60,915 nt of DNA from Candidatus Thorarchaeota archaeon SMTZ1-45 (lineage in GTDB: Archaea; Asgardarchaeota; Thorarchaeia; Thorarchaeales; Thorarchaeaceae): assembly GCA_001563335.1 (NCBI GenBank), contig LRSL01000007.1, positions 1-60,915 of the forward strand, read 5' to 3'. The position numbers and the translations under genes are program-made. Positions 32,562 to 60,915 of the stretch are shown here, in pieces; positions within the stretch are counted from its first letter, which is position 1; every line of letters begins with the position of its first letter. Under the pieces are notes generated by a model. It made no database searches and was not told where the DNA came from. It saw nothing but the letters and a program-made list of their open reading frames with translations.

Positions 32562-32597
32562 AGTTATGCTAGGGGCACTTTCGCCATTTGCATAACT
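32562..32597. terminator. inverted repeat between 32613..33956 and 31314..32507
   Basis: AGTTATGC(32562-69)/GCATAACT(32590-97) with inner GGC/GCC. Confidence 0.4.
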
Positions 32598-32612
32598 CTT
32601 TTGAAATCAGAC

Positions 32613-33956: not shown

Positions 33957-33976
33957 TTTCTTCTTGTTAATTCTTC

Positions 33977-35101: not shown

Positions 35102-35110
35102 TGTAACACC

Positions 35111-36568: not shown

Positions 36569-36578
36569 CTTGATCACC

Positions 36579-43929: not shown

Positions 43930-44021
43930 GGGAAGCATTAGTGGTCGAAGTAACACTTCGACTGTTTTTCTTTTTATTTTTCAAGAAGGGTTTATACTTA
44001 AGACCTGTTCACTCATCTAGG

Positions 44022-45233
44022 ATGGTTTCGGATGGTTTTAGCTTGACAGAATCTTATGATGTTGCAGTCGTTGGTGCGGGTCCTGCTGGGTCTACTGTAT
44101 CTAAGATCTTAGCTGAACAAGGGTTCAATACAATTGTGATAGATAGGAAATCAAGAATTGGAGTACCTGTACAATGCGGTGAATTAATTCCCACACCCAC
44201 TGAAGCACACAGACTATTTCCAAAATCCAAAATAATGCCTCAGGCAATCCATGTTCATTCTAAATTTATCACAAACAAAACTCGAGCAATCCGTCTTATC
44301 TCTCCAAATGGTAGTGTGTTTGAATTTCCATTTGAAGCCAACATTGTTGATAGAGCGAGATTTGACCAACACCTAGCTTCTCTTGCAGAAAATGAAGGTG
44401 CTAGGTTTCTACTAGGGTCTATTGTAAAAAGGCGATCATCCACTAATGAATTGACATTCACAAATGATGGGTCTGAAAACTCAATAAAAGCTAAATTTGT
44501 CGTAGGAGCTGATGGTGCTCACTCTATCGTAGCCAAATCCCTTGGAGTCAATTATATTCATAATGTTGCGAATCTTAGTCAATCTTTACAGTATGTCATG
44601 TCCGGTGTGGATGTTGATCCAACAGTTGTAGAGATGCATTTTGGAAGTGAGATTGCGCCAGGGGGATATGCATGGGTCATTCCAAAGGGCGATAGAGTAG
44701 CAAATATTGGGTTTGGCATGAGGCGAAGCATCGCAAAAGATAACGTTCCCCTTCGTACATATTTGGATCGCTTTGTTTTCAAGACTATTGCGTCCTCTCT
44801 GAAGAATTTCAAGATTGTAAGCAGAGTTGGTGCGATCATTCCTGTTGGTGGACCGCTTAAAAAAACCTGGTCAAAAGATGTGCTGCTAATTGGAGATGCT
44901 GCTGGTCATGTAATGGCGTCGAATGGTGGCGGTATTCCCACCGCACTCTGTGGTGGGGTGATTGCAGGCTATGCCATTTCAAAACATTTGAACATGGACT
45001 ATCCACTTTCTGAATATGAAAACAAATGGAGGTTGGAATTTGGAAGTGAACTTGACACAGCTGTCAGAGTTCTTAAAATAGCTGATTCTGTTATGCCCTC
45101 TGACACGAATACAGACATATGTATGCGACTGGCTGGAGTAAAATTTCTCGAGCCATTGATACGATGTCAATTACCTCTTCCTGTTGATCTGGCTTCAAAA
45201 ACATTGGTGAAAATTCTGAATCGTTTCCTCTGA
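44022..45233 (+). CDS. geranylgeranyl/prenyl reductase family flavoprotein
   Basis: VVGAGPAGS, PVQCGE, DRARFD, GADG, APGGYAWVIPK, GDAAG...GGGI; start trimmed to ATG 44022. Confidence 0.9.
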   Translation: MVSDGFSLTESYDVAVVGAGPAGSTVSKILAEQGFNTIVIDRKSRIGVPVQCGELIPTPTEAHRLFPKSKIMPQAIHVHSKFITNKTRAIRLISPNGSVFEFPFEANIVDRARFDQHLASLAENEGARFLLGSIVKRRSSTNELTFTNDGSENSIKAKFVVGADGAHSIVAKSLGVNYIHNVANLSQSLQYVMSGVDVDPTVVEMHFGSEIAPGGYAWVIPKGDRVANIGFGMRRSIAKDNVPLRTYLDRFVFKTIASSLKNFKIVSRVGAIIPVGGPLKKTWSKDVLLIGDAAGHVMASNGGGIPTALCGGVIAGYAISKHLNMDYPLSEYENKWRLEFGSELDTAVRVLKIADSVMPSDTNTDICMRLAGVKFLEPLIRCQLPLPVDLASKTLVKILNRFL

Positions 45234-46289
45234 CTAATAGAGTCTTTTCATAGCAAAATCCGCAAGCAGAATAAGAAGTTCCTGATTAACAAAGTCAAAT
45301 CCACGTATAGCTTCTTTGGCTGCAATCATATATTTCCTAGCAACATCTGTAGAGTATTCCACGGACCTATATTCATTAATCCTCTCTAATGCGTATTCTG
45401 CATCCCCCTCATTGAGCTTCTGTACGAATTCTTCCTTCTGGGTCTTAGAACAATTTTCAAGCGCATGAGCAAGCACAAAATTACTGTGGCTTCCTCGCAA
45501 ATCAGATTGTACTGTCTTGCCTGTTCCGTTTTGCGTGGCAACAATATCAAGGATATCATCACGAATTTGAAATGAAAAACCAAGCAGTTCTGCATACTTG
45601 ATCAAAGCCTCCAACTCAATATCCTTGGCATTGCCAAGCATGGCTCCCACTTTGGCTGCTGATGTCATGAATGAAACTGTTTTCATTTTTATGATTTCCA
45701 AAGCCAATTCGGTCGTGTACGATTGTATTTTATTCTGACTCATTAGCAGGTCTGAAGCTTCCCCTTCACACATCCTTATACCTCCAGCTGCAACATAAGT
45801 TAGCAATTCAGGGGTAGACCTCTCTCCGATCAGTTTGATAGCTAGCGCTACAAGTAAATCTCCTGCAATGATTGCCATCTTTCTTCCATATTTTTTATGA
45901 GTTGTTTCAACACCACGACGCATAGTGTCTTCATCAACTACATCGTCATGAATTAAGCTGGCTGTCTGAACAAACTCAGTAGCAACTGCAAAGGGTAATG
46001 CATCTACTGCTTTTCCGCCAACCGCTTCACAACAAAGAACTAGTAAGAGTGATCTGAGCCTTTTCCCACCAGCAAGAATAAGATGTCGAGTTGTTTCATA
46101 GAGTAATGCAGGTTCTCCATCTTCATCTAGAAGGCAGCGTTTAATCTCTTCATTAATGAGATTGATTCGAGTCCGTATCTTTTCATTTTCAAGCAGACCT
46201 GTTGTGTCCATCAGTTTCGATTTTTCTTCGTCTGAGTATGAATCTGGACCGGTATGAACAAAGGGTCTCTCTGACATTAGATGATACAC
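45234..46289 (-). CDS. trans-polyprenyl diphosphate synthase, predicted long-chain
   Basis: GGKRLR, TASLIHDDVVD (FARM), RRG, KT, FQIRDDILD (SARM). Confidence 0.92.
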   Translation of the reverse strand: MYHLMSERPFVHTGPDSYSDEEKSKLMDTTGLLENEKIRTRINLINEEIKRCLLDEDGEPALLYETTRHLILAGGKRLRSLLLVLCCEAVGGKAVDALPFAVATEFVQTASLIHDDVVDEDTMRRGVETTHKKYGRKMAIIAGDLLVALAIKLIGERSTPELLTYVAAGGIRMCEGEASDLLMSQNKIQSYTTELALEIIKMKTVSFMTSAAKVGAMLGNAKDIELEALIKYAELLGFSFQIRDDILDIVATQNGTGKTVQSDLRGSHSNFVLAHALENCSKTQKEEFVQKLNEGDAEYALERINEYRSVEYSTDVARKYMIAAKEAIRGFDFVNQELLILLADFAMKRLY

Positions 46290-46401
46290 CTAGGCATTCT
46301 GTTTCAAATCGTAAGCACCTTAAAGCAGTTGCCTTTCTCTTCGAAAACTTCTCTGGAATGGTAATCCTTTTCTTCATGAGAAATTGACATGAGCAAGTCT
46401 G

Positions 46402-47466
46402 GTGAAGACCATGAATTCTAGCGATGAAGCATCTCTTGAAAAGCCATCTAGGTTAAGAATCTGGCTTGCTGAGATGAGGGTTCCGTTTCTAACCGCAGCA
46501 ATAGTTCCAGTTATTCTTGGAACGTGCGTAGCTTGGGCTTCCACAGGGATATTTCTTCTTGATGTATTTCTTCTGACACTAATCGCTGGTATTTCCATTC
46601 ACATTGGATCTAACATTGCCAATGATTACTATGACCATCTTAGCGGTACTGATGATATCAATGTTGAATTTGTCCGACCTTTCACTGGGGGAAGTCGAAT
46701 GATTCAACGTGGTTGGATGTCTCCACGTGAAGTTTTCACAGAGGCAATGATTTTCTTTATTCTTGGTGGCGGCATAGGACTCTATCTAGCTTACACAAGG
46801 GGTATCGAAGTCCTAATCCTTGGAGTCATTGGAGTTGGTTCAGGTTTCTTCTATACTGCTCCTCCATTTCGCTTTGTGAGTCGAGGTTATGGAGAAGTAT
46901 TCATAGGGTTGAACTTCGGTGTTCTAATGACACTTGGAGCATATTTTGTTCAAACCCAAGTCTTAGCATGGGAGGCTGTTTTTCCATCAATCCCTGTCGC
47001 CATTTTGATCACAGCTGTTTTGTACATCAATGAATTTCCTGATCATGATGCTGATCGCGATGTTGGGAAGAGAACCATTGTTGTTCGGCTAGGTCGCCAA
47101 CGCGCTGCAAAGGGATATGTAATACTCATGGCATCCGTATACCTTTCAATACTAATCCCTATTGCAATCTCTCTCACTAATTGGTACAATATCCTTGGGT
47201 TAGCAACAATTCCTGCTGCAATTATGGGATCACAATATGCATTAAGACATTATGATCACTCACTTCAATTAATTCCTGCATATGCATCTACTGTGTTCAA
47301 CCATCTTTTCACAGGGCTCTTCCTTGCTCTCTCGTATTTACTGATAGGGTTTGAAAGCTCGCCACTCTACATTTTAGTTTCGGGCTTTGTATGTTTATGT
47401 GTATCCTTGTTGTTCTACATAATGACTAAGAGAAAAGCAAGAGCTGCTGGAGTCCTTTCAGAATAG
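46402..47466 (+). CDS. menA: 1,4-dihydroxy-2-naphthoate polyprenyltransferase (MenA/UBIAD1 family)
   Basis: NIANDYYDHLSGTD, FTGGSR, YTAPP, GYGE, NEFPDHDADRDVGKRTIVVRLG. Confidence 0.92.
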   Translation: MKTMNSSDEASLEKPSRLRIWLAEMRVPFLTAAIVPVILGTCVAWASTGIFLLDVFLLTLIAGISIHIGSNIANDYYDHLSGTDDINVEFVRPFTGGSRMIQRGWMSPREVFTEAMIFFILGGGIGLYLAYTRGIEVLILGVIGVGSGFFYTAPPFRFVSRGYGEVFIGLNFGVLMTLGAYFVQTQVLAWEAVFPSIPVAILITAVLYINEFPDHDADRDVGKRTIVVRLGRQRAAKGYVILMASVYLSILIPIAISLTNWYNILGLATIPAAIMGSQYALRHYDHSLQLIPAYASTVFNHLFTGLFLALSYLLIGFESSPLYILVSGFVCLCVSLLFYIMTKRKARAAGVLSE

Positions 47467-47467
47467 T

Positions 47468-47953
47468 TTATTTTTTTGGATTCTTCCATTTGAAAAATTC
47501 AGTCCCTCTCCAGTAGGAAATGGATTTAGGAGTGACTCGGATGGCAATTCTTGAACCAAGTGGATATCCTGTTCCCAAGAAATCAATGTACTTTTCCATG
47601 TACTTCAACATGAGTTCCTCAGGAGCAAGTTCCATTTCGATTAGGAATGCTTTGCCCTGAATCATAACTCCTGAATTTCCAGCAGGCGAAACAGGGTCTC
47701 GCTGATCAATTGTCACACTGACATTCCTATTTCTTCTGATGTTCAAGACCTTCTTACTCCCTTTTGATGTCACCAAGTATATAGTCTTCGTACTCTTATC
47801 CCAAAGGTAAAACATTGCTGTGACATGAGGCTCACAACCTGGTTCTGCTGTGCCCAAGTATGCGAAGAATCCTTCTCGCAAAAGTTTGAGAGCTGCATCG
47901 GGAATGGTTGATGACTTTTTGGTGTGGCTTTTTTGGGGTAATGTCAGAGTCAT
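47468..47953 (-). CDS. pyridoxamine 5'-phosphate oxidase-like split beta-barrel (flavin/F420/heme-binding) protein
   Basis: AYLGT..PHVT, SKKVLNIRRNRNVSVTID, GVMIQGKA, VTPKSISYW; start trimmed to ATG 47953. Confidence 0.85.
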   Translation of the reverse strand: MTLTLPQKSHTKKSSTIPDAALKLLREGFFAYLGTAEPGCEPHVTAMFYLWDKSTKTIYLVTSKGSKKVLNIRRNRNVSVTIDQRDPVSPAGNSGVMIQGKAFLIEMELAPEELMLKYMEKYIDFLGTGYPLGSRIAIRVTPKSISYWRGTEFFKWKNPKK

Positions 47954-47957
47954 GATA

Positions 47958-49220
47958 TCACGCTCGTAGAGCTGTGGGACGCGCTTCACGCCAATATGTA
48001 ATCCTCTCAGGTTCTAGGCGCACAATAAGTCTAGAAAGGAATGGCTTGTTCCGCCATGCTGGTGGTAGTTCACGTGCCTGTTCAACATAGTATTTCATGT
48101 ACTGGGGATATTTCCTTCCAAACAGGTTTCTGACCCTGAGAAGCCATAATCCATACAGGAACATCTTGAATATCCCGAGTAAATTAATCTCTCCAAGAAT
48201 CATTCCCTTACCTCGCAAGAGTACAGCTCGATTCTTCATTGGATTCTTACTATCACGCATGTCTACCAATACAGCTATCTTGGAGTTCATCTTAATAATG
48301 CGATATTTCGCTGAAGCAACTGAAATAGCAAAATATAGGTACTTGCCATCATACACAAAAATTACTGGAGTTACATGTGGTTGGCTATTAGAGCATGCTG
48401 AAACATATGCAAACCGCTCATAATGTAGAATACTCTCAACATCAGGCGGAAACCAAGGAACTGTTTCCATAGACATGAGACTTAGTGTCGACAATCCTAT
48501 AATTCCGACAAGAAAAATCACAAGTCCCAACAATAGAACTGAGGAGCTTAAAGCAAGAGGCAGTAAAAGCACTGCTGATATACCCCAATAAAGGTTAATC
48601 ATATCAAGATACTTTAGAGTCCTCACTTCTGAGTACGCTGTATACGCCAGCCCCATTCTTTTTCTGGCTGCTGAACTTAAGGATATGGACCTCCAAGCTG
48701 TTAAGAGAGCTGTGACGAGGGAAAGTCCCATTCGATAGCTAACATCCCAGGCAAGAACTAGAATCAATATTGTGAGCAATGGGTTTCCAAATCCAGTTCC
48801 AAGGAAATAAAGTAGATAGTCAGAGTCATAAATCAGGTATGCGACAACAGCTCCAAAACATGCTAAGCCTCCTACTAGTTCGTATCTTCGTTTCAATAGT
48901 AGACGTGCCTTATAATCATGGAGCACTTCTCGCTCTAACTTGTTTGTGGGATCTCTAAGTCTTCTCAGCCAAGGTATCACATATAGACAACCTGCTGACC
49001 AGACAACTGTGTAGAGAATGGCAAGAGATCCAAAAATCGCAGCTTCAGCTGCCATCTGGAAATATATGAAAGCAAGAACACCAACAGTTTCAACTAGAAG
49101 CAACTGAGCCACAACAGCATATGTAGAGGGTAGCCATTTGAATGGAGGAATGTGGTCTACAATCTCTTCATAGATCCACTTGCGTTGAAACCTATCTTCG
49201 AATGTCGACCCAGCATTCAT
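47958..49220 (-). CDS. multi-pass membrane domain fused to a C-terminal PPOX-like split beta-barrel
   Basis: ~6 TM N-terminus; C-terminus PHVTPV..LYF..SAKYRIIKMNSKIAVLVD..AVLLRGK..LEPERITYW. Confidence 0.8.
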   Translation of the reverse strand: MNAGSTFEDRFQRKWIYEEIVDHIPPFKWLPSTYAVVAQLLLVETVGVLAFIYFQMAAEAAIFGSLAILYTVVWSAGCLYVIPWLRRLRDPTNKLEREVLHDYKARLLLKRRYELVGGLACFGAVVAYLIYDSDYLLYFLGTGFGNPLLTILILVLAWDVSYRMGLSLVTALLTAWRSISLSSAARKRMGLAYTAYSEVRTLKYLDMINLYWGISAVLLLPLALSSSVLLLGLVIFLVGIIGLSTLSLMSMETVPWFPPDVESILHYERFAYVSACSNSQPHVTPVIFVYDGKYLYFAISVASAKYRIIKMNSKIAVLVDMRDSKNPMKNRAVLLRGKGMILGEINLLGIFKMFLYGLWLLRVRNLFGRKYPQYMKYYVEQARELPPAWRNKPFLSRLIVRLEPERITYWREARPTALRA

Positions 49221-49269: not shown

Positions 49270-50496
49270 CTAACTATAGATCTCGTCAAGACCATCCCAT
49301 GCAAGACCAAGTGCTTGTGCAACTAATACTGCAAGATCTTTCACTGGTTTGCTTGAGCCTGCTTGAGGTAGTTGATCCGCCATGAAGTCAACGCATGAGG
49401 GACAACCAGATGCCACCACATCTGCATTTGTTGCTTCGATGTCTTCTACTTTGAGTCTGTTTATTTGAATTGCAAAATCTGCATCAATAGCTCTTAGCAC
49501 ACCACCAGATCCACAACAATAGCAGTTATTCTTGTTATGTGGCAACTCTTCAAAAACAACCCCGGGAAGATATTCGAGTACCTTTCTAGGTTCCTCAAAG
49601 AATCCTGAATTACGCCCAGCATCGCAGCCATCATGATATGTTACAGTAATATCAAGGGGCGTATTGAGACCAGTTAATTTCCCACTGTCAAGCAGGTCTG
49701 CGAGATATTGATACCCATAAACTATCTCAAAACCATGGTCGATATCAAGGAACTCATGATACTCATGAGCCCACATCTTATAACAACCAGGACAGTTGGT
49801 AACAATTTGTTCCACTCCTAACTCTTTGTATTTCTGGATGTTGTGCTCAGCAAGCACTCTTGCACCTTCAAAGTCTCCAGTCATTATCAGTGGTGCACCA
49901 CAACAGTACTCCTCTTCACCAAGCACTGTGTATTCTTCTCCAACCTTGTCCATTATTAATGTGGAGGCAATAGTAGCTTGAATGGATATTCCTCTGAATG
50001 ATGATGCACAACCAAAGAAGAATGCTGTTTTTGCTGGTGCCCCCTGCTTGTCCAGTAACTCGTCCTCGTTTGGAGTCCAGTATGACCATCCCTCAATTCT
50101 ATCCATTTGAGCTTGGCCTTGAATGTTGAAATTCTTCAAGACAGTATCTTTAGCCATTTGCAGTTCTTCTGGCCACATATTGCGTTTTTTAAACTCAGAG
50201 CGCATCACCTGATAGATCTTCACAAACGGAATATCAACCTGACAGATCTCTTCACAGCCACCGCAGAGAGTACAACCAAAGATAGCATCTCTAAGACCTT
50301 CGAGCCCCTCTGAAGGTCTAATTCGACCTTGCATCAGAGCACGTGTCAATAGCATTTTACCTTTTCCGGAGTAGCTATCTCGACGTTTTACTTTGTATGT
50401 AGGACATGCGCCATGTCCAACTTGACAAAAACTGCATTGAGCGCAAGTATAAGCATAGTCTTGGAGGTCATAATCATTCAGTGTTGGAAATTCCAT
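49270..50496 (-). CDS. Fe-S/CCG oxidoreductase (GlcF/HdrD-like), paralog D; divergent from the FAD-NuoB fusion
   Basis: CAQCSFCQVGHGACP, CTLCGGCEEIC, YCCG..CPGC, HDGC..YCCG..CPSC. Confidence 0.92.
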   Translation of the reverse strand: MEFPTLNDYDLQDYAYTCAQCSFCQVGHGACPTYKVKRRDSYSGKGKMLLTRALMQGRIRPSEGLEGLRDAIFGCTLCGGCEEICQVDIPFVKIYQVMRSEFKKRNMWPEELQMAKDTVLKNFNIQGQAQMDRIEGWSYWTPNEDELLDKQGAPAKTAFFFGCASSFRGISIQATIASTLIMDKVGEEYTVLGEEEYCCGAPLIMTGDFEGARVLAEHNIQKYKELGVEQIVTNCPGCYKMWAHEYHEFLDIDHGFEIVYGYQYLADLLDSGKLTGLNTPLDITVTYHDGCDAGRNSGFFEEPRKVLEYLPGVVFEELPHNKNNCYCCGSGGVLRAIDADFAIQINRLKVEDIEATNADVVASGCPSCVDFMADQLPQAGSSKPVKDLAVLVAQALGLAWDGLDEIYS

Positions 50497-50708: not shown

Positions 50709-52649
50709 ATGGTCCTGAAACCAACACCAAAAGAGAAACTCAAGGAGATTTTTGGAGACCGGCTGATTACACAGAAGCATGAACTGATTTTGTTCGGACA
50801 AGATGTTGGTTCTCTTCCAAAACAAGTTGGATGGCTCATGAATACAAAACCAGATGCCATTGTACAACCTCAAACTCCTGAAGAGATTCAAGCACTCTAT
50901 GGAGTTGCACAAGAATTCAAGGTATCACTAGTTCCTCGGGCTGCAGGGACCTCAGGATATGGAGGAGCAATCCCCCGGAAAGGTGGGGTTGTGGTTGACA
51001 TGAGACGCATGGATAAAATACTCGAGGTTGACAGAGAAAATCTTACAGTCACTGTTGAGCCTGGCATATCTTGGGCCAACCTACAGTTTGCATTGAACAG
51101 AGAGGGATTAGACACACGATGCTATCCATCATCTGGCCTCTCAGCAACTATTGGAGGATGGGTGGCTCAAGGAGGCGACGGCATAGGGTCTCTTAAGTAT
51201 GGTAACATTAACAAGAATGTCATCAAACTTGAAGTTGTACTTCCAAATGGAAAAATCGTTAATACAAAAGACCTCGATTTATTCTGCGATACAGAGGGAA
51301 TTCTTGGAATTATCACAAAAGTCACCTTAAAAATTAAACCGCTTACTCCTATGAAGGTGATAGTTTCAAGCTTTGAAGAAAACTACCAGATGGTTCTGGC
51401 AATTGAGAAGATACTCGAAGATGGACCACTTCCATTCACTATCAAGTTTGAAGAGTCAAAATACACAGACCTCAAGAAAGCAATCTGGGAGGGCGATAAA
51501 CCATTCCCGATTCCAGCACATCATGGGTCGTTGATGGTTGTCTATGAGGGTGATGAGGAAGAGATAGCAGAGGGCATTCGAGTAGTCGAAGAAGTCACTG
51601 AGATGTACAGGGGAGTTGTCTATGGTGATGATGTTGCAGAACATGAATGGCACGACCGGTATTATCCTATGAAGATCAAGAAGAGAGGTCCAACACTCGT
51701 AGTTGGTCAGGCGTTCGCTCCACTTGAGAATCTTGCTGCAATACTTGATGACTTCCAATTTGAGCAAGCATCAGCAAAGGCTGGAATAGATGGTTATGTC
51801 AACTCCAAGAATGCGGTCACAATGATGGGCTACTTCCTCGAAGATGAGAGAAGGATGTTCTATATGTTCTCTTGGGCTCAGAGCTTCGTCATTTTCAAGA
51901 TAGCTCAAAGACATGGAGGACATGTACATTCTACAGGTATCTGGTTTGCCAATTACGCTTCACAGTACTTTGGAAAACAAAGACTTGCCCGGATAAGATC
52001 AGCAAAACTACAATGGGACAAGAATGAGATCTCTAATCCTGGAAAGGTTTTTGCCTATTGGTTACCTTTCATTCTCAAAATTGGTAAGTACTTCCTATGG
52101 ATATTCTATGACTTATTCAGAAATGGGTTTGGTCGCATTGCACCAATTCTCTTGAAATGGTTGCAGAATGTACCACCGCTGAAATGGGTGCTAAGATGGG
52201 GTCGAGCCCATAGTCCATGGCCAATGCAGTATGGTATTGGATGTTGCATGGTTGACGGTGCTGCAGGAATTGCTCCCCGTTGGGACTTTGAGAGATTCGG
52301 AATGCTACCGCTTTTTGGTCCAAGGCAGACCGACGTTCTGTGGATTTCAGGCTCACTTACAAAGAAGATGGCTCCACGACGTAGGCGTATCTATGAGCAG
52401 ATGCCAGAGCCCAAGTACGTTATCGCCTTTGGTCAATGCGTTGCTTCTGGAGGGTTGTTTTGGGAAGGATATAGTCTTGCTACGCCACCTGATAAGATAG
52501 TTCCTGTGGATGTCTATCTTCCAGGCTGTCCTCCAAAGCCAGCAGACTTTATTCGAGCACATATCATTCTTCAAAACAAGATTCGAGCAGGAACAACTCA
52601 CTGGCAACGAAAATACGAGAACCAAGATGCAATGGGGATGATGCAATAA
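50709..52649 (+). CDS. fusion: FAD-binding oxidoreductase (VAO/GlcD-like) + NADH-quinone oxidoreductase subunit B (NuoB) domain
   Basis: N-part PRAAGTSGYGG, YPSSGLSATIGG, EGILGIITKV, NPGKVF; C-part WGRAHSPW..GIGCC..DFERFG..PRQTD..KKMAP..YEQMPEPKYVIAFGQC..PVDVYLPGCPPKP; one uninterrupted frame. Confidence 0.93.
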   Translation: MVLKPTPKEKLKEIFGDRLITQKHELILFGQDVGSLPKQVGWLMNTKPDAIVQPQTPEEIQALYGVAQEFKVSLVPRAAGTSGYGGAIPRKGGVVVDMRRMDKILEVDRENLTVTVEPGISWANLQFALNREGLDTRCYPSSGLSATIGGWVAQGGDGIGSLKYGNINKNVIKLEVVLPNGKIVNTKDLDLFCDTEGILGIITKVTLKIKPLTPMKVIVSSFEENYQMVLAIEKILEDGPLPFTIKFEESKYTDLKKAIWEGDKPFPIPAHHGSLMVVYEGDEEEIAEGIRVVEEVTEMYRGVVYGDDVAEHEWHDRYYPMKIKKRGPTLVVGQAFAPLENLAAILDDFQFEQASAKAGIDGYVNSKNAVTMMGYFLEDERRMFYMFSWAQSFVIFKIAQRHGGHVHSTGIWFANYASQYFGKQRLARIRSAKLQWDKNEISNPGKVFAYWLPFILKIGKYFLWIFYDLFRNGFGRIAPILLKWLQNVPPLKWVLRWGRAHSPWPMQYGIGCCMVDGAAGIAPRWDFERFGMLPLFGPRQTDVLWISGSLTKKMAPRRRRIYEQMPEPKYVIAFGQCVASGGLFWEGYSLATPPDKIVPVDVYLPGCPPKPADFIRAHIILQNKIRAGTTHWQRKYENQDAMGMMQ

Positions 52650-53218
52650 TGTACATTCGACAAGACAGTGATCCATATTGCATGCTCTTTCTTGGTTTAA
52701 TCATCCTCACAGCATTCATCTTCAACTTCGTTTATCTTGGATTCTTGATACCGTCAGCCTCTTTTGTGATTGCAGGTTCCTTTACACTAATTGGTGGTAT
52801 GTCCATCGTCTTGGTCTTCTTCTTGATTGGGTACTTCCGACCAGAGAAAGGTAAAGGTAAGAATCTGATGATGGCTCTCTCAATAACTGTAGGTTTCTTC
52901 TTTGTGGTCTTTGTTGATCAGTTTGCACTTGCTGTCCCATCAGCAGGAGATACTATATACCTCTCATTTTGGGGTTTAGGAGGCGCAATTCTCACAGCAG
53001 CCGGTTTCGCAATGATGCATAACCAAGAAGAGAGTTATTCCCCAGGCATTATGGACACAGGTGCTCTACACTACGGTCCAGAACCTGAGCCTGAACCAGA
53101 GCCAGAAGAAGAAATCAGTGTTGAGCCTGAGGCAGAGTCGGTGGCACCCACAGATACAGCGACGACTGAAGAAACTAATACAAACACTGAACCAGTTTCT
53201 GATGCTGAAAAAGAGTAA
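52649..53218 (+). CDS. hypothetical 4-TM membrane protein with acidic Pro/Glu-rich tail
   Basis: TAATG overlap with the fusion gene; PEPEPEPEPEEE tail. Confidence 0.75.
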   Translation: MYIRQDSDPYCMLFLGLIILTAFIFNFVYLGFLIPSASFVIAGSFTLIGGMSIVLVFFLIGYFRPEKGKGKNLMMALSITVGFFFVVFVDQFALAVPSAGDTIYLSFWGLGGAILTAAGFAMMHNQEESYSPGIMDTGALHYGPEPEPEPEPEEEISVEPEAESVAPTDTATTEETNTNTEPVSDAEKE

Positions 53219-53227: not shown

Positions 53228-53593
53228 TTACTCATGAAGCCAACTGAATGCAGCAAACGCAATTAGAAGTCCTATTGCCATCAATGCGAACAAAATTATT
53301 CCAGTTATGAGATCAAGCATTGTGAAGAGGAGATAAACATGAATACCTCCAAGAATTCCTGTGAGCATTGTAAGACCAACTCTACTGGAACGTGTTTTGG
53401 CTGAAACGAATCCAAACGCTGATGCTGCGAAGAGAATCCCGCCTAGTACAAGAATCATATTGAAGATTATACTTACTGCACTCGTTTGTGTATTCATGAG
53501 TATCCAGAAGTAAGTTCCCAATAGAGCCATACCTATCAAAAGCGCTAGATAATAGAAGAATGTGCCTTCTTCGCCATGAGCCAAATGAATCAC
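53228..53593 (-). CDS. hypothetical 4-TM membrane protein
   Basis: 121 aa, hydrophobic, own TATA-like element near 53641. Confidence 0.65.
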   Translation of the reverse strand: MIHLAHGEEGTFFYYLALLIGMALLGTYFWILMNTQTSAVSIIFNMILVLGGILFAASAFGFVSAKTRSSRVGLTMLTGILGGIHVYLLFTMLDLITGIILFALMAIGLLIAFAAFSWLHE

Positions 53594-53951: not shown

Positions 53952-54419
53952 ATGATGCAGAGTGAAAGATTGTTTGCGCAATTCATCCCCGTCTTAATAT
54001 GGGCAATATTAGCCATTGTTCTTGTTGTTGTAATGCTGCTAGCATCGTGGGTATTGCGTCCCCACGTGCTACAAAACTCTGAGAAGACTTCTACGTATGA
54101 ATGTGGTGAAGAACCAGTTGGTCCTGCAAGAATCTCCTATCCATACAACTACTTCATCTATACCGTGCTTTTTGTCGTTGTGGATGTTATGGGCGCTTTT
54201 CTCTGGCTTCTTTCATCCTCTAACATACTTTGGGTTGATGCTACTAAGTATACAGTCGTTTGGCAGGTGGCTGTCTTTATCCTAATAATCGTTGGTGGAA
54301 TCGCCTTTGTCATGAAGATGCTTCCGCAAGCAGCCTTGGATGGGAAAGAAACACTTGAGGTGTATCGAAAGGCGAAGGCTCAGAGGGAACAAGAACAGCA
54401 TGTTGCAGGAGGTCACTAA
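53952..54419 (+). CDS. nuoA: complex I-like subunit A
   Basis: EKTSTYECGEEP loop, YFIYTVLFVVVDV, 3 TM. Confidence 0.92.
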   Translation: MMQSERLFAQFIPVLIWAILAIVLVVVMLLASWVLRPHVLQNSEKTSTYECGEEPVGPARISYPYNYFIYTVLFVVVDVMGAFLWLLSSSNILWVDATKYTVVWQVAVFILIIVGGIAFVMKMLPQAALDGKETLEVYRKAKAQREQEQHVAGGH

Positions 54420-54421: not shown

Positions 54422-55072
54422 ATGCAAGAAAGTACTGCATTAGATCTGTTAGAACCTGGAGAATTCCTATTAATTGCAGGCATTATATTGATTCTTGCAT
54501 ATCTCGCACTTGAGCACAAAGAGATTGTCTATGCTGCATTCTTCTTTGGATTCATGGCATCATTTGTCGCGGGGATTTTTCTTCTGCTTGAAGCACCTTT
54601 TATCGCTGGAATGCAGATTGCAGTGTATACAGGAGGTATAAGCGCACTCATTATCTTTGCAGTTCTACTACTACCAAGAGCTCAAGATTCATCTCTAGAA
54701 GAGTTCTCATCACCACGAAAGCGCCAAATTGGGCTCATTATGGCCACCCTAGTCATAATACTCTCTGGTGTCCTTGCTTTTATCTTTCCATGGGCAGAGT
54801 CCTTTGATGATACTTTCATTGCTATATCAAATGACCTCAATGAACTTGCTCTATGGTTATGGGCTGACAATGGTATCTATGTTCAGATTATTGCCCTGAT
54901 TATGATTACCTCGCTCGTAGGTGCCATTGCGCTTCTGAAGATGGACAAAGCGGAACAACTCGTTTCTATTCGTGGCGAATTTGGAATTGAAGCTGAGCCA
55001 GAACTCCAGGAGCTAGATGTATTAGAGGATGAAGAACCTGACACAGAAGAACATGAGGAGGTTGATGACTAA
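54422..55072 (+). CDS. nuoJ: complex I-like subunit J
   Basis: LLEAPFIAGMQIAVYTGGISALIIF, LVGAIALL. Confidence 0.92.
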   Translation: MQESTALDLLEPGEFLLIAGIILILAYLALEHKEIVYAAFFFGFMASFVAGIFLLLEAPFIAGMQIAVYTGGISALIIFAVLLLPRAQDSSLEEFSSPRKRQIGLIMATLVIILSGVLAFIFPWAESFDDTFIAISNDLNELALWLWADNGIYVQIIALIMITSLVGAIALLKMDKAEQLVSIRGEFGIEAEPELQELDVLEDEEPDTEEHEEVDD

Positions 55073-55383
55073 TGGTCCCGCTCTCATGGTATCTTATTCT
55101 TGCATTCATGCTAATTGGATTGGGTGGCTACGGTATGATGGTCAAGAGGAATCTCATTAGAATCCTCATTGGAGCTGAAATCATGGGTAATGGTGTCAAT
55201 ATTGCACTTGTAGCCATGTCACTCTATAGTCCAGTATTTACATTCACAGGTCAAGGGCTGATTATCTTGATTATCTCTGTTGCCGCTGCACATACAGCTT
55301 TAGCTTTGGTTTTGATGTTGATGTACAACCGACGCTATGATACAGTTGACCTTGGACAACCAATCGTAATGGAGGAACCATAA
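55072..55383 (+). CDS. nuoK: complex I-like subunit K
   Basis: GGYGMMVKRNLIRILIGAEIMGNG, GQGL..SVAAA. Confidence 0.92.
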   Translation: MVPLSWYLILAFMLIGLGGYGMMVKRNLIRILIGAEIMGNGVNIALVAMSLYSPVFTFTGQGLIILIISVAAAHTALALVLMLMYNRRYDTVDLGQPIVMEEP

Positions 55384-55384: not shown

Positions 55385-55912
55385 ATGTCAGACTCGTCTA
55401 CTATTAATGCTTCTACCTTTGGAAGACTCGTCATCAACAAAATTCCTGAGGTATCATCGAAGCCTCTTGATGGTAACAAGATTGAGCTTGTAGTACCTGC
55501 AAGTAGGATTCGTGACGTGGTCACCATTATTGATGAGGAAATCAATGATGCCCTCCCTGAGTCTGTCTTTGGCGTTGATCTTGAGAATGACAATTACGAG
55601 CTTATCTACATCTTCTGGTCTCACAACAACCGCTTGCTTGTTCAACTACGAGTATCCTTGCAAGGGGAGAATCCAGAGATTGAGAGCACTTGTGACATCT
55701 TTCCTGGTCTTGAATGGCATGAACGAGAGGTCAGAGAGATGTTCGGTGTAAATATCACGAATCATCCTGACCCACGGCTCCTTCTATTGCCTGACGAGTT
55801 GGAGGGTGTTTATCCTCTTCGCAAAAGGTTCCAGACAGATCAGAGCAGACTTGAGGAAACAGGAATATCGACTCCAAAACCAAGGGCAACATCGGGAGGT
55901 GAAGACAAGTGA
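55385..55912 (+). CDS. nuoC: complex I-like subunit C
   Basis: WHEREVREMFGV...HPDPRLLLLP...YPLRK. Confidence 0.93.
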   Translation: MSDSSTINASTFGRLVINKIPEVSSKPLDGNKIELVVPASRIRDVVTIIDEEINDALPESVFGVDLENDNYELIYIFWSHNNRLLVQLRVSLQGENPEIESTCDIFPGLEWHEREVREMFGVNITNHPDPRLLLLPDELEGVYPLRKRFQTDQSRLEETGISTPKPRATSGGEDK

Positions 55913-57045
55913 GTCCCGACATTCTTGAGGAAGCAATGGAAGTCTGGTTTGGTCCTCAACATGTGTCTGCACATGGTTGGGCAACAAAGTTGACACTCGT
56001 GGGTGACTATGTAGTTGAATGTGATCCCAATGCGGGCTACTTCCACCGCTCTGCTGAGAAGGTCCTTGAGTTCAAGAATTTTAGGCAAGGCTCACTGGTG
56101 TTGGAACGAATGTGCATGCTCGAGGCATTCTTGGCTGAATACCCGTATATTGCTGCAGTTGAGAAGATTTCTGAGGTTGAAGTTCCTGAGCGTGCGAAAG
56201 TCATGAGAACCATCATGATGGAGCTTTCACGTCTTCACAGTATCCAATTCTGGTGGGGCCAGTTCAATGCTGAGCTTGGTTTCTTCACAATGGCTCTATG
56301 GCCATGGGTGGACCGAGAGTATACACTTGACGCTTTTGAAGAATTAACAGGTTCACGACACACAGTTTCATACTCAACACCTGGTGGCGTGAAGTATGAT
56401 TTCTCTGACAAATTTATGAAACAACTAAACCGTGCAGTAGAGCGTTTTGAGGATAGACTACCCAAATTTAGAGACATGCAAATGGGAAGCCCAACCTTTA
56501 GGGCAAGAACTGAAAATATTGGTCTATATGATGTAAAACAGGGTCTCAAGTGGGGTCTGAGTGGTCCACCAATCAAGGCATGCGGAGTTCCCATGGACTT
56601 ACGAAAGGATGACCCAGATTCGAATCTAGCTTATGACATGGTTGACTGGGAGGTTCCTATCACAGAGAACCCTGAGCATCCAAGCCAGAGTGATGCGCTC
56701 GATCGTATGGAACAACGATTCAAGGAAGCTGAGGTTGCTGTTGAGATCATTAAGCAGTTGATTCCTCAAATACCAGAGGGTGACATTATAGACCCTAAGG
56801 CTCGGGCAAAGACTAACAGACTCCCTGAAGGAGAGGCTTATGGTCGAGTAGAAGGGACGCGTGGTATAACATCACTGTGGCTTAAGACACAAGATAAAGC
56901 ACAGACAGCATACCGCGCAAAGATTCGAGGTCCATGTATTGCTTCCTATTATGCGTTGAAGGACTTAGTGCCTGGTTCGAAATTTGCAGACTTCATTGTG
57001 ATATTTGGAAGCTTGGACCCATATCCAGGGTGGTGGGATCGCTGA
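55909..57045 (+). CDS. nuoD: complex I-like subunit D (lacks the NiFe CxxC pairs)
   Basis: FGPQHVSAHG, GYFHRSAEK, VPERA, ELSRLHS, GLSGP, EGTRG, GSLDPYPGWWDR. Confidence 0.92.
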   Translation: MSPDILEEAMEVWFGPQHVSAHGWATKLTLVGDYVVECDPNAGYFHRSAEKVLEFKNFRQGSLVLERMCMLEAFLAEYPYIAAVEKISEVEVPERAKVMRTIMMELSRLHSIQFWWGQFNAELGFFTMALWPWVDREYTLDAFEELTGSRHTVSYSTPGGVKYDFSDKFMKQLNRAVERFEDRLPKFRDMQMGSPTFRARTENIGLYDVKQGLKWGLSGPPIKACGVPMDLRKDDPDSNLAYDMVDWEVPITENPEHPSQSDALDRMEQRFKEAEVAVEIIKQLIPQIPEGDIIDPKARAKTNRLPEGEAYGRVEGTRGITSLWLKTQDKAQTAYRAKIRGPCIASYYALKDLVPGSKFADFIVIFGSLDPYPGWWDR

Positions 57046-58199: not shown

Positions 58200-58631
58200 A
58201 TGGGATTCTTCAGTGTATTAGGTGATTGCTTCCAGATTCTGAAACATACATTCAGACAAGTCTTCAAGAGACCGTTCACATACTTCTTCCCATTTGAGGA
58301 TAGAATCTACCCTGAGCGAACAAGAGGTAGGCACATCCATGTTCGCAAGAACTGCACAGCGTGTGCACAATGTGTACGCGCATGTCCTGTCGTAGCAATC
58401 AGGATGGACAAAGAAGACAAGATGTACGAGAAGGATTGTGCCTTATACTTCGACTACACAAGATGCATCTTCTGTGGGCTTTGCACTCAGGCTTGCAGGT
58501 TCGAGGCACTGTTTCACACTCCAGTCGTTGATTTGAGTGAAGGAGACCGTGAGGATCTCATCTATGGACCTGACAAGATTGAAACACTTGACAGAGACCC
58601 TCTAGAGTGGCGTGGAAGGAGGTTCCGGTGA
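58200..58631 (+). CDS. nuoI: complex I-like subunit I (2x[4Fe-4S])
   Basis: RTRGRH, CTACAQCVRACP, CIFCGLCTQAC. Confidence 0.93.
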   Translation: MGFFSVLGDCFQILKHTFRQVFKRPFTYFFPFEDRIYPERTRGRHIHVRKNCTACAQCVRACPVVAIRMDKEDKMYEKDCALYFDYTRCIFCGLCTQACRFEALFHTPVVDLSEGDREDLIYGPDKIETLDRDPLEWRGRRFR

Positions 58632-60188
58632 ATGCAAATCACAGAACTTCCCTTTGCAGCTCTCTCTTTGGCAGTGCTCTTCTTCGGAGGACTCCTTATC
58701 TATGTCTTCAAGGGCAGTCTGGATAAAACAGCTGGAAGAGTCGCGGTTGGATTCTCAGGAATCGCTTCCCTCTTGATGGTGTATCCTTTCTATCAGGTGG
58801 TAACAGGAGCTCTACCGGAGTATACGGAGTTTGCCACTTGGTCCGGACTTCTGGAGCAGTTCGGTCTCAGGCTTGATGGCATTGCTTTTCCAATCACATT
58901 TGCAGTGGTCGTGCTTGGATTTCTCTCAGTCGTCTATGCTGTTGGTTATACAGAGCATAGCGAGAATAGGGCTACCTTCTTTGCCAACCAGCTCTTCTTC
59001 CTGATGGGCATGCAGTGGGTGACCTTGGCAACTAATTTGATCGAATTCTTCATTGCGTGGGAATTGATGCTAGTACCAGCATACTTCCTTATTCTGTTCT
59101 GGGGGTTGCCTGAAACTCGAAAACGGACTGCTTTGAAGTTCTGGCTTTATACGCAATCTGGTGCTGTCTGTATCCTGGTTGGTTTTGGCATTCTCTACTC
59201 ATTGACAGGTTTCTTTGACTTGGCATCATTGCAGGGAGCTGTTGACTTGCTTGATCTCCACGAAGTGCTCCCAGGATTGGGAATAGACATTGGCGCTATT
59301 CTGAGGGTTGTATTCATCCTTCTCGGAGCAGGATTCTTGGTTAAGATGGCGGTCTTTCCCATCCACTGGTGGCTCCCACCTGTTCATGCTGAGGCACCCA
59401 CACCAATCTCAGTACTTCTTTCAGGTGCCATGATTGAGACTGGTGCTTATGCCTTGATGCGGTTTGGTAGCATTACACTCTGGGATGCAGCATACGCGCT
59501 GTCATTCTTTGTTGCTGCATTAGGAGTCATAACCATGTTCTATGGTGGATTCATGGCTCTAGCCCAGATTGACATCAAGAGACTCTTAGCATACTCGTCG
59601 GTTTCACAGATGGGCTATGTTCTTTTTGCCCTTGGTACATACTCACCCATGGGCTTCGAAGGAGGTATGTTCCATCTCATCAACCATGCCTTCTCCAAAG
59701 GATTGTTGTTCATGACCGCAGGTGCAGTCATACATCAGACTGGTCTTCGTGACATAACGAAGATGGGCGGTCTCTCAAACAAGATGCCAATCACTGCATT
59801 TGCTGCTGCAATTGGCATGATGAGCATTGCTGGCAGTCCTCCTCTCTCTGGCTTTGCAAGTGAGTGGATGATGTTCCTTGGTGGATTCCAGAGGGCTGTT
59901 TGGCCTGGCTCTAATCTAGCTTTCCTCATTCTAACAATATTTGCAGTTTCAAGTTCAATTCTCAGTGCAGGATATATGCTGCGTTTCTTCTGGAAGGTCT
60001 TTCTCGGCTCTCACCCTGATGAGCTCGAAGACGTGAAAGAGAGTTCCAATTCTATGACAATCCCTATGATCATACTTGGAATCCTCATAGTGATCTTTGG
60101 AATATTCCCAGGACTGGCACTGGATGTCATTGTCCCGGCGATAACGAACCTAGTACCGTGGGACCAGCTCGGTCTAATTCTCCCATGA
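58632..60188 (+). CDS. nuoM: complex I-like antiporter subunit M
   Basis: FFIAWELMLVP, VKMAVFPIHWWLPPVHAEAPTP, DIKRLLAYSSVSQMG, NHAFSKG. Confidence 0.9.
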   Translation: MQITELPFAALSLAVLFFGGLLIYVFKGSLDKTAGRVAVGFSGIASLLMVYPFYQVVTGALPEYTEFATWSGLLEQFGLRLDGIAFPITFAVVVLGFLSVVYAVGYTEHSENRATFFANQLFFLMGMQWVTLATNLIEFFIAWELMLVPAYFLILFWGLPETRKRTALKFWLYTQSGAVCILVGFGILYSLTGFFDLASLQGAVDLLDLHEVLPGLGIDIGAILRVVFILLGAGFLVKMAVFPIHWWLPPVHAEAPTPISVLLSGAMIETGAYALMRFGSITLWDAAYALSFFVAALGVITMFYGGFMALAQIDIKRLLAYSSVSQMGYVLFALGTYSPMGFEGGMFHLINHAFSKGLLFMTAGAVIHQTGLRDITKMGGLSNKMPITAFAAAIGMMSIAGSPPLSGFASEWMMFLGGFQRAVWPGSNLAFLILTIFAVSSSILSAGYMLRFFWKVFLGSHPDELEDVKESSNSMTIPMIILGILIVIFGIFPGLALDVIVPAITNLVPWDQLGLILP

Positions 60189-60198
60189 GGTGACACAG

Positions 60199-60915
60199 AT
60201 GCTATTCGGACTACCCTATTATCTAATCCTCGTCATTCCCTTGGGCGGCGCATTATTAATTCCACTAGTTGGAAGGTTTAGTGAAAAAGCAAGAGACTGG
60301 ACACCAGCATTCTTCATGGGTATTGCAATGATCCTATGTTGGTCACTTCTTCCTGATATCGGAACGACCGAGAACACCAGCTGGATGTGGATCGCTCAGC
60401 TTGGTCTTGAGTTCAGCGTCCTGCTTGATCCACTTTCCGTCATCATGGCTATTCTTGCTAGCACACTCTGTTTCCTCATCTATGTCTATAGCACAGAGTA
60501 CATGGCTCATGATGAAGACCGTATGCGCTTCCACTTCCTAATGCTCACCTTCGGAGGTGGAATGCTCACACTTGTTCTGAGCAACAACCTGCTGATTGGG
60601 TTTATCGGATGGGAGATAATGGGCTTCTGTTCCTACGGTCTCATCGGTTTCTGGAACGATAAGAGGAATCCACCTGAAAAAGATCCAACTGGCTATGAGC
60701 AGACCAATCCCTTACTCCAGTGGGAGACCGAGGGCAACTACAACAGCTACTGCGGCACAAAGGCATTCATCGTCACAAGAATTGGTGATGCCTTCATGCT
60801 GGGTGGTATCCTGTTGTTGTTCGTGTTCACTCAGACATTCATGTTCTCTGAGATGGCTGACCCAGCAGCCTCTAACCATTGGTGGGAAAATATGTCTAAT
60901 GTAGGCTTGCTGATT
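60199..60915 (+). CDS. nuoL: complex I-like antiporter subunit L; runs off the window edge
   Basis: Manual translation from ATG 60199 (after GAGGTGA): LDPLS..YSTEYMAHD..FIGWEIMGFCSYGLIGFW..KAFIVTRIGD. Confidence 0.92.
   Translation, partial: MLFGLPYYLILVIPLGGALLIPLVGRFSEKARDWTPAFFMGIAMILCWSLLPDIGTTENTSWMWIAQLGLEFSVLLDPLSVIMAILASTLCFLIYVYSTEYMAHDEDRMRFHFLMLTFGGGMLTLVLSNNLLIGFIGWEIMGFCSYGLIGFWNDKRNPPEKDPTGYEQTNPLLQWETEGNYNSYCGTKAFIVTRIGDAFMLGGILLLFVFTQTFMFSEMADPAASNHWWENMSNVGLLI

Follow-up and report, generated by a model that had tools for sequence, protein, structure and literature searches.

The subject of this study is a gene of Candidatus Thorarchaeota archaeon SMTZ1-45 that encodes a flavoprotein and the complex I subunit NuoB as a single polypeptide next to a nuo operon. 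The gene is located on contig LRSL01000007.1 (assembly GCA_001563335.1), of which positions 1 to 60,915 were analyzed (referred to below as the window); the genome to which the window belongs is 87.7% complete. It occupies positions 50709..52649 of the forward strand as one open reading frame (ORF) of 646 amino acids with a TAA stop codon at 52647-52649. Three Pfam families exceed their cut-offs on this chain: FAD_binding_4 (residues 48-186, E-value 2e-39), the FAD-oxidase_C cap (residues 216-447, 2.6e-9), and Oxidored_q6 (residues 524-617, 3.7e-22). The first two make up a flavin adenine dinucleotide (FAD)-binding flavoprotein part of the VAO/LDHD fold at 50850..52049. It is followed by an amphipathic helix (residues 452-472, 52062..52124; hydrophobic moment 0.53, placed with low confidence by AlphaFold2, AF2), probably the own C-terminal membrane-surface tail of the flavoprotein, and by the NuoB part (residues ~474-646, 52128..52646) with the N-terminal helix of its NuoB clade, the motifs CC, GQC, and PGC, and a conserved C-terminal helix. 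The motif NPGKVF (residues 443-448, nucleotides 52035-52052) and the tandem CC (residues 512-513, nucleotides 52242-52247) lie where an earlier note on this DNA had placed them, and the Pfam scan confirms its view that an FAD domain and a NuoB domain share one 646-residue frame.

Identity of the NuoB part

The Oxidored_q6 match scores 78.9 bits against a Pfam cut-off of 27, and two NCBIfam models are likewise exceeded: nuoB_fam TIGR01957 at residues 493-630 (163.5 bits, cut-off 142.7) and NF005012 (172.7 bits, cut-off 116). In a sequence search of the PDB, the CC, GQC, and PGC motifs line up with the cluster-ligand cysteines of NdhK, and these ligands are invariant in 43 fusion sequences. The closest solved structures are NdhK (2.9e-43), PSST (~5e-41), and Nqo6 (1e-39), whereas MbsJ (1e-28), MbhJ (2e-28), and HycG (to 6e-24) score far weaker. 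The rule on which the earlier note had relied, adjacent cysteines in complex I NuoB as opposed to cysteines two residues apart in hydrogenase small subunits, is stated in the accessible portion of PMC7684303. Judged by these matches, the C-terminal domain is a true complex I-type NuoB with all four cysteines of cluster N2. The free subunit has about 150-250 amino acids; here it is not free-standing but part of a 646-residue chain.

The AF2 model of the whole fusion has pLDDT values mostly of 80-96 in the flavoprotein part, ~48-66 in the tail, and 30-60 in the NuoB part, and because of the low values in the last two, interdomain geometry and cofactor distances are not derivable from it. A scan for sigma-70 promoters and terminators, with a model unsuited to archaea, returned sites no commoner than in shuffled sequences.

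Distribution and integrity of the fusion

Related genomes were surveyed at the level of the class (87 genomes, 17 genera) and of the phylum (400 genomes). A near-full-length fusion frame is present in 51 of the 87 genomes of the class, that of the window included, and nine more carry the fusion in pieces, owing to contig-end cuts or, in G024, to two overlapping frames; the survey of relatives suggested in the earlier note thus gives 60 of 87 genomes and 12 of 17 genera. Among 53 related loci, 42 contain a single full-length match, one of them on a closed chromosome, and the FAD and NuoB Pfam domains occur together in 46 among the best 120 protein clusters listed (72-94% identity). The seam between the two parts is bridged by contigs of three sequencing runs (X1, X2, and X4) with 0, 0, and 2 differences and with no indels or joints, which speaks against a misassembly at the junction; all four runs compared consisted of contigs, so that depth is uninformative, and one of those that bridge the seam may be the source sample. 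The two frames of G024 (C5:93253-95186) meet at residues 430-435, away from the domain seam, and represent a frameshift error or a pseudogene. A one-contig genome of a fusion-bearing genus (G058, 77% complete) has neither a fusion nor a NuoB match.

The fused domain is also the only NuoB-type domain found in the 87.7%-complete genome. The two other Oxidored_q6 genes encode small subunits of cytoplasmic [NiFe]-hydrogenases on other contigs, and in the closed genome of a relative from another genus (G010) nothing but the fused domain matches as NuoB-type; some fusion-bearing genomes possess a second small-subunit gene, ~44% identical. This bears out the proposal of the earlier note that the fusion supplies NuoB to the adjacent operon, and the search for a stand-alone nuoB or nuoEFG that it had called for found no free nuoB and no NuoF-type gene in the rest of the genome. 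A single NuoD-type gene was found there, and Rnf was not found in the genome.

When the NuoB part was used as a query among long proteins, the FAD-NuoB architecture proved to be confined to Thorarchaeota-type clusters; the other long proteins with a NuoB match were NuoBC, NuoBCD, and NuoAB fusions, intein-bearing MbhJ, and plant mis-joins. A HMMER search of 1.84 billion protein representatives recovered a single full-length cluster, two fragments belonging to this family, and an unfused form, and beyond these no protein matching both halves was present among the best 150 matches. In the 400 genomes of the phylum, all NuoB matches of at least 79% identity fall within the family of the window and lie in frames of at least 600 amino acids or at contig ends. 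The best matches outside the family are free genes of 185-186 amino acids with 66% (G397) and 59% (G089) identity. In each of five genomes examined from genera lacking the fusion, a single NuoH-type gene and a free small subunit belong to a distantly related complex (25-41% identity); the two large subunits aligned from such genera (L059 and L061) retain all four [NiFe] cysteines, and these complexes are therefore hydrogenases. Since the genomes examined from genera without the fusion carry only distant complexes, the fusion and this nuo operon occur together.

Frames of ~617-671 amino acids with a NuoB match in other Asgard families were considered as further fusions of this kind and rejected: the three that were fetched show NuoI, NuoB, and NuoD in a row and contain no flavoprotein. 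In these loci (L063, G394:C6; L064, G092:C45; L065, G169:C31) the three domains stand head to tail in open frames of ~670 amino acids, which may represent a triple fusion within the peripheral arm.

Anatomy of the seam

Residues 448-500 are among the best-conserved stretches of the fusion (43 sequences). AF2 places amphipathic helices at residues 452-472, 474-486, and 491-500, with low confidence. All members of the flavoprotein subfamily possess a hydrophobic or amphipathic tail after the NPGK motif, which in paralogs of 527-577 amino acids resembles a transmembrane segment. The free NuoB proteins of G397 and G089 begin to align with the fusion at residues 484 and 481, respectively, and by eye their N-terminal helix matches residues ~477-500. 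From these alignments, the seam is placed near residue 473, with the flavoprotein and its first tail helix before it and a complete NuoB of the clade after it. Of the "amphipathic aromatic linker" described in the earlier note, the amphipathic character stands, whereas the segment is no linker: it consists of the tail helix of the flavoprotein and the N-terminal helix of NuoB.

An unfused protein of 498-499 amino acids that is 55% identical and ends at residue 494 occurs in genus g14, where its gene belongs to a co-directional MenA-CCG-FAD cluster without nuo genes. It was considered as the ancestral split form, and this was dropped on the grounds that the free NuoB proteins align from residues 484 and 481 and the g14 protein reaches 494. 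As it therefore contains NuoB-derived residues, it is more likely a truncated descendant of the fusion, as far as a comparison by eye can indicate.

The flavoprotein part and its Fe-S/CCG partner

By sequence and fold, the flavoprotein part is nearest to D-lactate dehydrogenases, namely LctD of the Ldh-Etf complex and mouse LDHD. The best Foldseek match is mouse LDHD (E-value 4e-30; TM-score 0.84 normalized to the target), and LctD (7qh2_C) follows with 1.7e-29. Equivalog level for GlcD is not reached (TIGR00387, 144 bits against 568; NF008408, 103 against 897), and the YdiJ model gives 82 bits against 1350. In a HMMER alignment to mouse LDHD, which is of low confidence in the cap domain, Tyr, Val, and Val stand where LDHD has His, His, and Glu, a triad whose role and residue numbers we take to be those of the metal site of LDHD and D2HGDH. 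The triad is likewise missing across the whole subfamily (alignment A1), including free enzymes paired with CCG proteins. Because it is not kept, "D-lactate dehydrogenase" here describes the fold. Conservation is high in the FAD-binding motifs and in the cap domain.

Divergently from the fusion, at 49270..50496 on the reverse strand, lies a gene for an HdrD/GlpC/GlcF-like Fe-S/CCG protein of 408 amino acids (Pfam Fer4_8 and two CCG domains). It combines a two-[4Fe-4S] ferredoxin domain with two complete CCG motifs, whose ten cysteines (C163/C198/C199/C235/C238 and C291/C327/C328/C365/C368) are all invariant in 31 sequences; both domains have what we take to be the full pattern, Cx(31-39)CCx(35-36)CxxC. 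No named family is reached at equivalog level: TfrB is best with 157 bits against 385, GlcF has 63 against 333, and the LdhH, GlpC, HdrB, and DsrK models all stay under their cut-offs. Among 49 loci with a fusion match, a partner gene is found at most 2.5 kb upstream in 29 and 2.7-7.4 kb away in nine; it is missing despite sufficient room in one, and ten have no room for it.

A complex of fusion residues 1-494 with the partner was predicted with an ipSAE of 0.87 (runs of 0.88, 0.87, and 0.86), and the best of three controls was 0.00. Of 80 solved complexes, 58 reached the mark for this score, as did 2 of 110 mismatched pairs; because our own alignments were supplied, these figures apply here only approximately. 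The runs have at least 95% of contacts in common, the partner has a pLDDT of 90, and in the modelled interface its ferredoxin domain (residues 13-88) packs against the FAD-binding face. Many natural single-chain proteins with FAD, Fe-S, and CCG modules were recovered in the protein-cluster search. Since such one-chain proteins exist, the success of the complex prediction may partly reflect likeness to them; they also constitute independent "Rosetta stone" support for the pairing. The partnership suggested in the earlier note thus gains from synteny, single-chain proteins, and modelling, and binding of the divergent Fe-S/CCG protein to the flavoprotein part is credible.

The nuo operon

Downstream of the fusion, two small membrane proteins precede the operon proper. 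The gene orf189 (52649..53218, +), whose ATG overlaps the fusion stop codon by one base, encodes a protein with an acidic tail; it immediately follows the fusion in 43 of the 49 loci, is missing in two with room, and four have no room. It is poorly conserved in sequence and matches no family above the Pfam cut-off (weak DUF1516, E-value 0.0063, 17.1 bits against 30.5) and none in NCBIfam. The gene orf121 (53228..53593, -), with about four hydrophobic segments, has no Pfam or NCBIfam match. The operon continues on the forward strand with nuoA (53952-54419, Oxidored_q4), nuoJ (54422-55072, Oxidored_q3), nuoK (55072-55383, Oxidored_q2), nuoC (55385-55912) and nuoD (55909-57045), both identified by Pfam and the latter without the CxxC pairs of [NiFe] enzymes, and nuoH, an ORF from 56934 whose listed start lies inside nuoD and whose NADHdh domain begins at its residue 105. 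They are followed by nuoI (58200-58631), with two CxxCxxCxxxC motifs, and by antiporter-like genes (58632..60915, +): the first is NuoM-like and has 518 amino acids, and of the second, which is NuoL-like, only the beginning is present before the contig stops. Four such genes (518, 756, 514, and 505 amino acids) stand at the end of the operon in the closed relative G010. There, a gene for a Ras-family small GTPase lies directly after the last of them on the opposite strand (L062, 4273-4881).

As the earlier note had reported, nuoB and nuoEFG are absent from the operon beside the fusion as far as the contig end, and its statement that the window lacks nuoEFG and fpoF agrees with the failure to find a FrhB-family gene in the window or NuoF in the genome. 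Among the 49 loci, nuoA lies at most 2.5 kb from the fusion in 36 and 3.2-7.9 kb away in four; seven have no room. NuoI retains all eight cluster cysteines, from which we conclude that the usual ferredoxin entry is intact.

The site in NuoD is unusual; the meaning of the positions discussed (H38 and Y87 of Nqo4, C85 of MbsL) is taken from the accessible portion of PMC7684303. The best solved matches are MbsL (6u8y_L, 1.5e-57) and Nqo4 (7e-50). His22, the equivalent of Nqo4 H38, is invariant (36/36), Met70 stands at the position of Nqo4 Y87 in 35 of 36 sequences, and Cys69, which replaces the preceding Asp and is equivalent to MbsL C85, is present in all 36 as the only relic [NiFe] cysteine. 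Met also occupies the Y87 position in the NuoD of G397, a genome with a free NuoB and without the relic cysteine; the unusual site thus belongs to the clade and did not arise from the fusion. Asgard large subunits sampled more widely (L059, L061, L063, L065, and L068-L075) retain four, two, one, or no relic [NiFe] cysteines, the one-cysteine form being that of the fusion lineage and the cysteine-free form that of its closest outside relative, G397. The FpoD model scores 243.9 bits against 600, under the Fpo/Fqo level. With one cysteine (C69) and a CC-type NuoB, the complex also differs from group 4 [NiFe] hydrogenases and MBS, which are characterized by four (MBH) or two (MBS) relic cysteines and by a small subunit with CxxC or a three-cysteine proximal cluster (PMC7684303, in the text accessible to us).

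Respiratory gene neighborhood

By its predicted gene content, the window is a respiratory island. Profile searches identify a geranylgeranyl reductase family gene (43941-45230, +), a polyprenyl synthase gene (45234-46289, -), and a MenA-like prenyltransferase gene (46402-47466, +; TIGR00751 menA, 131 bits against a cut-off of 102). The prenyl-carrier genes are syntenic in many fusion loci and also in the g14 cluster without nuo genes. Between the MenA-like gene and the partner gene lie two genes of the PNPOx family, one of which also encodes a membrane DUF7530 domain as a fusion, and the whole of 43941-49220 may be a biosynthetic cluster for a candidate prenylated redox carrier.

Three more pairs of an LDHD-fold flavoprotein and an Fe-S/CCG protein are encoded at 25375-36589 (-), with 576, 573, and 492 amino acids paired with 392, 397, and 374 amino acids, respectively, and an amine-oxidase-type flavoprotein gene (32616-33956) lies among them. 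G010 retains the pairs and the amine-oxidase-type gene in the vicinity of the fusion and has a fourth pair in addition. A predicted membrane-anchored cytochrome c of 466 amino acids (38107-39504, +) contains seven CxxCH motifs, hydrophobic segments at both ends, and weak matches to Cytochrom_C552 and C554. Together with CcmA/B/C-like genes at 23186-25300 (-) and a CcmF-like gene at 41857-43926 (+), it is part of what, on the evidence of these predictions, is a c-type cytochrome system in a Thorarchaeote. In G010, the FAD+CCG pairs, a MenA-like gene, a polyprenyl synthase gene, and CcmABC lie at most ~25 kb from the fusion; in the 35 kb retrieved there, neither the cytochrome nor the CcmF-like gene nor the geranylgeranyl reductase was found.

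In two lineages without the fusion, an FAD+CCG cluster is located a few kb from a hydrogenase-type complex (L059, G075:C7) or from nuoA-nuoB/J/K genes (L067, G089:C175); these two cases hint at a functional link of FAD+CCG enzymes with complex I-like loci that would be older than the fusion. At the far end of the window, four paralogous zinc-type alcohol dehydrogenase genes stand in a row (472-6942, -) with a DUF4386 membrane protein in between.

Proposed electron flow and alternative explanations

Our best reading of the locus, for and against which we see about equal weight, is a ferredoxin-driven pump to whose foot a dehydrogenase is permanently docked, both using one prenylated carrier. 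The locus would encode a NuoEFG-less complex I-type ion pump consisting of NuoA, C, D, H, I, J, K and, judging from the closed relative, four antiporter-like subunits, with ferredoxin entering at NuoI; ferredoxin-driven headless complexes have been proposed elsewhere (PMC9723677 and PMC7374477, in the portions accessible to us). NuoB, the carrier of cluster N2, is translated as the C-terminal domain of an LDHD-fold flavoprotein, which would bind the Fe-S/CCG protein through the ferredoxin domain of the latter, electrons passing from FAD over two [4Fe-4S] clusters to the CCG clusters. The amphipathic helix of the flavoprotein leads directly into the N-terminal helix of NuoB, an arrangement that would fix the FAD/CCG enzyme to the membrane surface where the peripheral arm has its foot, close to the entrance of the carrier cavity; a membrane-surface dehydrogenase may have given up its own hydrophobic anchor in exchange for NuoB. 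By way of this enzyme, electrons from an organic substrate would reach the same quinone-like prenylated carrier to which the pump delivers those of ferredoxin; reoxidation of the carrier would take place elsewhere.

Several observations are consistent with this arrangement. In the structures from T. thermophilus, NuoB has its N-terminus at the membrane interface, remote from the upper end of the arm. A link to the membrane and to a carrier is suggested by the tails of the subfamily, the FAD+CCG pairs, and the MenA-like, prenyl, Ccm, and seven-haem cytochrome c genes nearby. The main argument against the flavoprotein as the driving input is energetic. The redox potentials are about -450 mV for ferredoxin, -190 mV for lactate/pyruvate, and -74 mV for menaquinone, and with these textbook values transfer of two electrons to menaquinone yields ~72 kJ from ferredoxin and ~22 kJ from lactate. 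The former allows four to five ions, which matches the four antiporter-like subunits, and the four genes fit a large driving force. The ~22 kJ of a hydroxyacid is too little for such a pump, and the flavoprotein is therefore unlikely to be its driving input. The earlier note had described a complex I-like pump hard-wired to a flavoprotein input: the fusion and the partner hold, while the intact entry at NuoI and the low energy yield speak against the flavoprotein as the input.

A number of points weigh against the docked dehydrogenase. The LDHD metal triad is absent, which leaves substrate and catalysis of the flavoprotein only putative. At one locus (L013) a CCG gene is missing within 10 kb, and at two of the 49 (L037 and L050) the nuo genes are missing within ~10 kb of the fusion. 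As Met replaces the quinone-ligating Tyr87, the NuoD cavity is not a canonical quinone site. Of the naphthoquinone head-group routes, MqnA/D was not found and MenB stayed under its cut-off in the 87.7%-complete genome; an HdrE/NarI-type cytochrome b was not found in the genome either, nor was a quinol oxidase identified. Two FrhB/FpoF-family genes on other contigs keep F420H2 as a candidate donor. Finally, AF2 gives no reliable placement of FAD relative to NuoB, and a direct electron path to N2 would be compatible with it.

Because the NuoD site is non-canonical, the head-group pathway was not found, and AF2 does not fix the cofactor distances, readings in which the flavoprotein exchanges electrons with the pump itself stay alive. 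In general form, the FAD/CCG unit would be electronically continuous with N2, directly or via a captive prenylated cofactor in the NuoD cavity, and the pump would work independently of a pool between ferredoxin and a soluble organic or disulfide couple; we consider this doubtful but take it seriously.

One such reading, which we hold to be unlikely, makes the FAD/CCG unit the input that replaces NuoEFG, with electrons flowing from FAD through Fe-S clusters to N2 and transfer to the carrier driving the pumping. The covalent link to the N2-bearing subunit, the missing NuoEFG, the strongly conserved seam segment, and the FAD+CCG clusters near complex I-like or hydrogenase-type loci without a fusion (L059 and L067) all speak for it. 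Yet NuoI keeps both of its clusters and with them the normal entry, the NuoB N-terminus is distant from the arm top in known structures, the typical substrates of the fold yield far too little energy for four antiporter-like subunits, and the subfamily appears to function with CCG partners and membrane tails where no NuoB is attached.

An output module is a weaker candidate still. Electrons of ferredoxin would enter at NuoI and leave, via a bound carrier or directly, to the CCG/FAD unit, which would reduce either a compound resembling a heterodisulfide or a 2-oxoacid. The ferredoxin:heterodisulfide oxidoreductase that the Fpo-like complex and HdrD of Methanomassiliicoccales are assumed to form, an interaction described as assumed in the accessible text of PMC7374477, would here be hard-wired. 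The two complete HdrB/HdrD-type motifs of the partner favor it, as do the HdrE-type cytochrome b not found in the genome, the presence of MvhG, MvhD, and HdrA genes, and the non-canonical NuoD site; moreover, the complex is the only candidate ferredoxin-oxidizing pump, neither Rnf nor another group-4 complex having been found in the genome. Against this, the fold of the flavoprotein normally oxidizes its substrates, and the genes nearby (MenA, prenyl, and cytochrome c) suggest that a pool of lipid carrier exists and has outlets of its own. We also know of no disulfide carrier in Thorarchaeota.

That the flavoprotein part is no longer an enzyme and serves NuoB as a scaffold, anchor, or assembly domain is improbable: the loss of the His/His/Glu positions and the weak cap-domain score would suit such a role, but free enzymes that pair with CCG proteins share these substitutions with the rest of the subfamily, conservation of the FAD-binding motifs and of the cap is strong, and an Fe-S partner with intact ligands is maintained alongside. 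A misjoining of two genes by assembly or gene calling has a negligible chance, as nothing was found in its favor apart from the two overlapping frames of G024, whose break lies off the seam, and against it stand the 42 of 53 loci with a single full-length match, closed chromosome included, the 51 genomes with near-full-length frames, and the contigs of three runs that cross the seam with no indel.

Significance

Relatives of complex I exchange their input heads (NuoEFG, FpoF, or ferredoxin adaptors); to our knowledge, these heads are in every case separate subunits that sit on top of the arm. In Thorarchaeota, an outside enzyme is fused to the N2 subunit at the presumed foot of the arm, across a widespread Asgard class. 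The complex is the only candidate ferredoxin-oxidizing ion pump in the genome and therefore probably determines how much energy these abundant sediment archaea gain, with a bearing on the models of Asgard redox metabolism that are used in scenarios of eukaryogenesis. The fusion can be regarded as a natural cross-link that tells which enzyme stands beside the carrier site of the pump, and the flavoprotein offers a handle on whether CCG/HdrD-type proteins exchange electrons with a complex I-type core, which for methanogens has so far only been assumed (PMC7374477, as far as its accessible text goes). If the FAD/CCG unit were indeed electronically continuous with N2, this would be the first relative of complex I with a built-in redox enzyme serving its "quinone end", and it would prove physically the kind of coupling long assumed for Fpo-like complexes and HdrD, in the archaea most closely related to eukaryotes. 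The graded loss of [NiFe] cysteines in Asgard archaea adds intermediates to the series from MBH through MBS to complex I (PMC7684303, in the portion accessible to us).

Comparison with known systems

The nearest functional parallel is the "headless" Fpo-like complex of Methanomassiliicoccales with HdrD, an 11-subunit-type relative of complex I, which resembles the thorarchaeal locus in having no NuoEFG or FpoF, in being thought to use ferredoxin, and in an HdrD-type CCG protein without HdrE (PMC7374477, accessible text). There, the interaction is assumed and HdrD is free and encoded elsewhere, whereas in Thorarchaeota the flavoprotein is covalently attached to NuoB and, according to the model, binds an HdrD-like protein. 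The thorarchaeal locus further differs by the added flavin, the non-methanogenic host, and the adjacent MenA-like and cytochrome c genes.

The GlcDF, YdiJ, and Dld-HdrD dehydrogenases consist of the same modules as the thorarchaeal pair (FAD_binding_4, FAD-oxidase_C, Fer4_8, and two CCG domains), often in a single chain. They are not joined to a complex I subunit, and the thorarchaeal pair stays under the equivalog cut-offs and has no LDHD-type triad. Dld genes beside HdrD are reported for the related Sifarchaeia and Jordarchaeia in the accessible text of PMC9723677, which also describes a NuoEFG-less complex I in related Asgard classes.

Like NuoB, NdhK, and PSST, the fused NuoB contains the tandem CC and two further N2 cysteines; canonical NuoB is free, whereas that of the fusion continues from a flavoprotein of 470 residues. 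Compared with canonical complex I, NuoD has no equivalent of Tyr87 and keeps one relic [NiFe] cysteine. In both respects it agrees with MbsL of Pyrococcus furiosus MBS, which also lacks the Y87 equivalent and keeps the C85-type cysteine, but MbsJ has a three-cysteine proximal cluster where the thorarchaeal NuoB has all four ligands and the CC of complex I. Unlike MBS and MBH, the thorarchaeal complex keeps H38, loses the MbsL C385 cysteine, and has a Nuo-type membrane arm. A "2M" type of complex I with an extra NuoM was reportedly described by Chadwick and colleagues in 2018; as that type is said to be defined, the operon of G010 may resemble it in its four antiporter-like genes and its long NuoL-like gene of 756 amino acids.

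Fusions of complex I subunits have been catalogued, among them a NuoB-NuoC fusion in 47 archaeal assemblies (PMC11237513, accessible text). The known NuoBC, NuoBCD, and NuoAB fusions join subunits of one complex, whereas the thorarchaeal fusion joins NuoB to an outside enzyme. In public annotation it is named "NuoB" except for four among the listed clusters ("hypothetical protein" twice, "NADH-quinone oxidoreductase subunit B", and "NAD(P)H-quinone oxidoreductase subunit K"). The available full-text literature, including the accessible portions of 10.1101/2024.07.04.601786, PMC13399641, PMC11291895, PMC11237513, PMC9723677, PMC6737245, and PMC8165549 and excluding supplements and subscription papers, does not mention a flavoprotein-NuoB fusion. 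Set against this body of text, fusions within complex I, Dld-HdrD neighbors, and the assumed interaction of Fpo-like complexes with HdrD are already known, and the apparently new element is a flavoprotein welded to NuoB.

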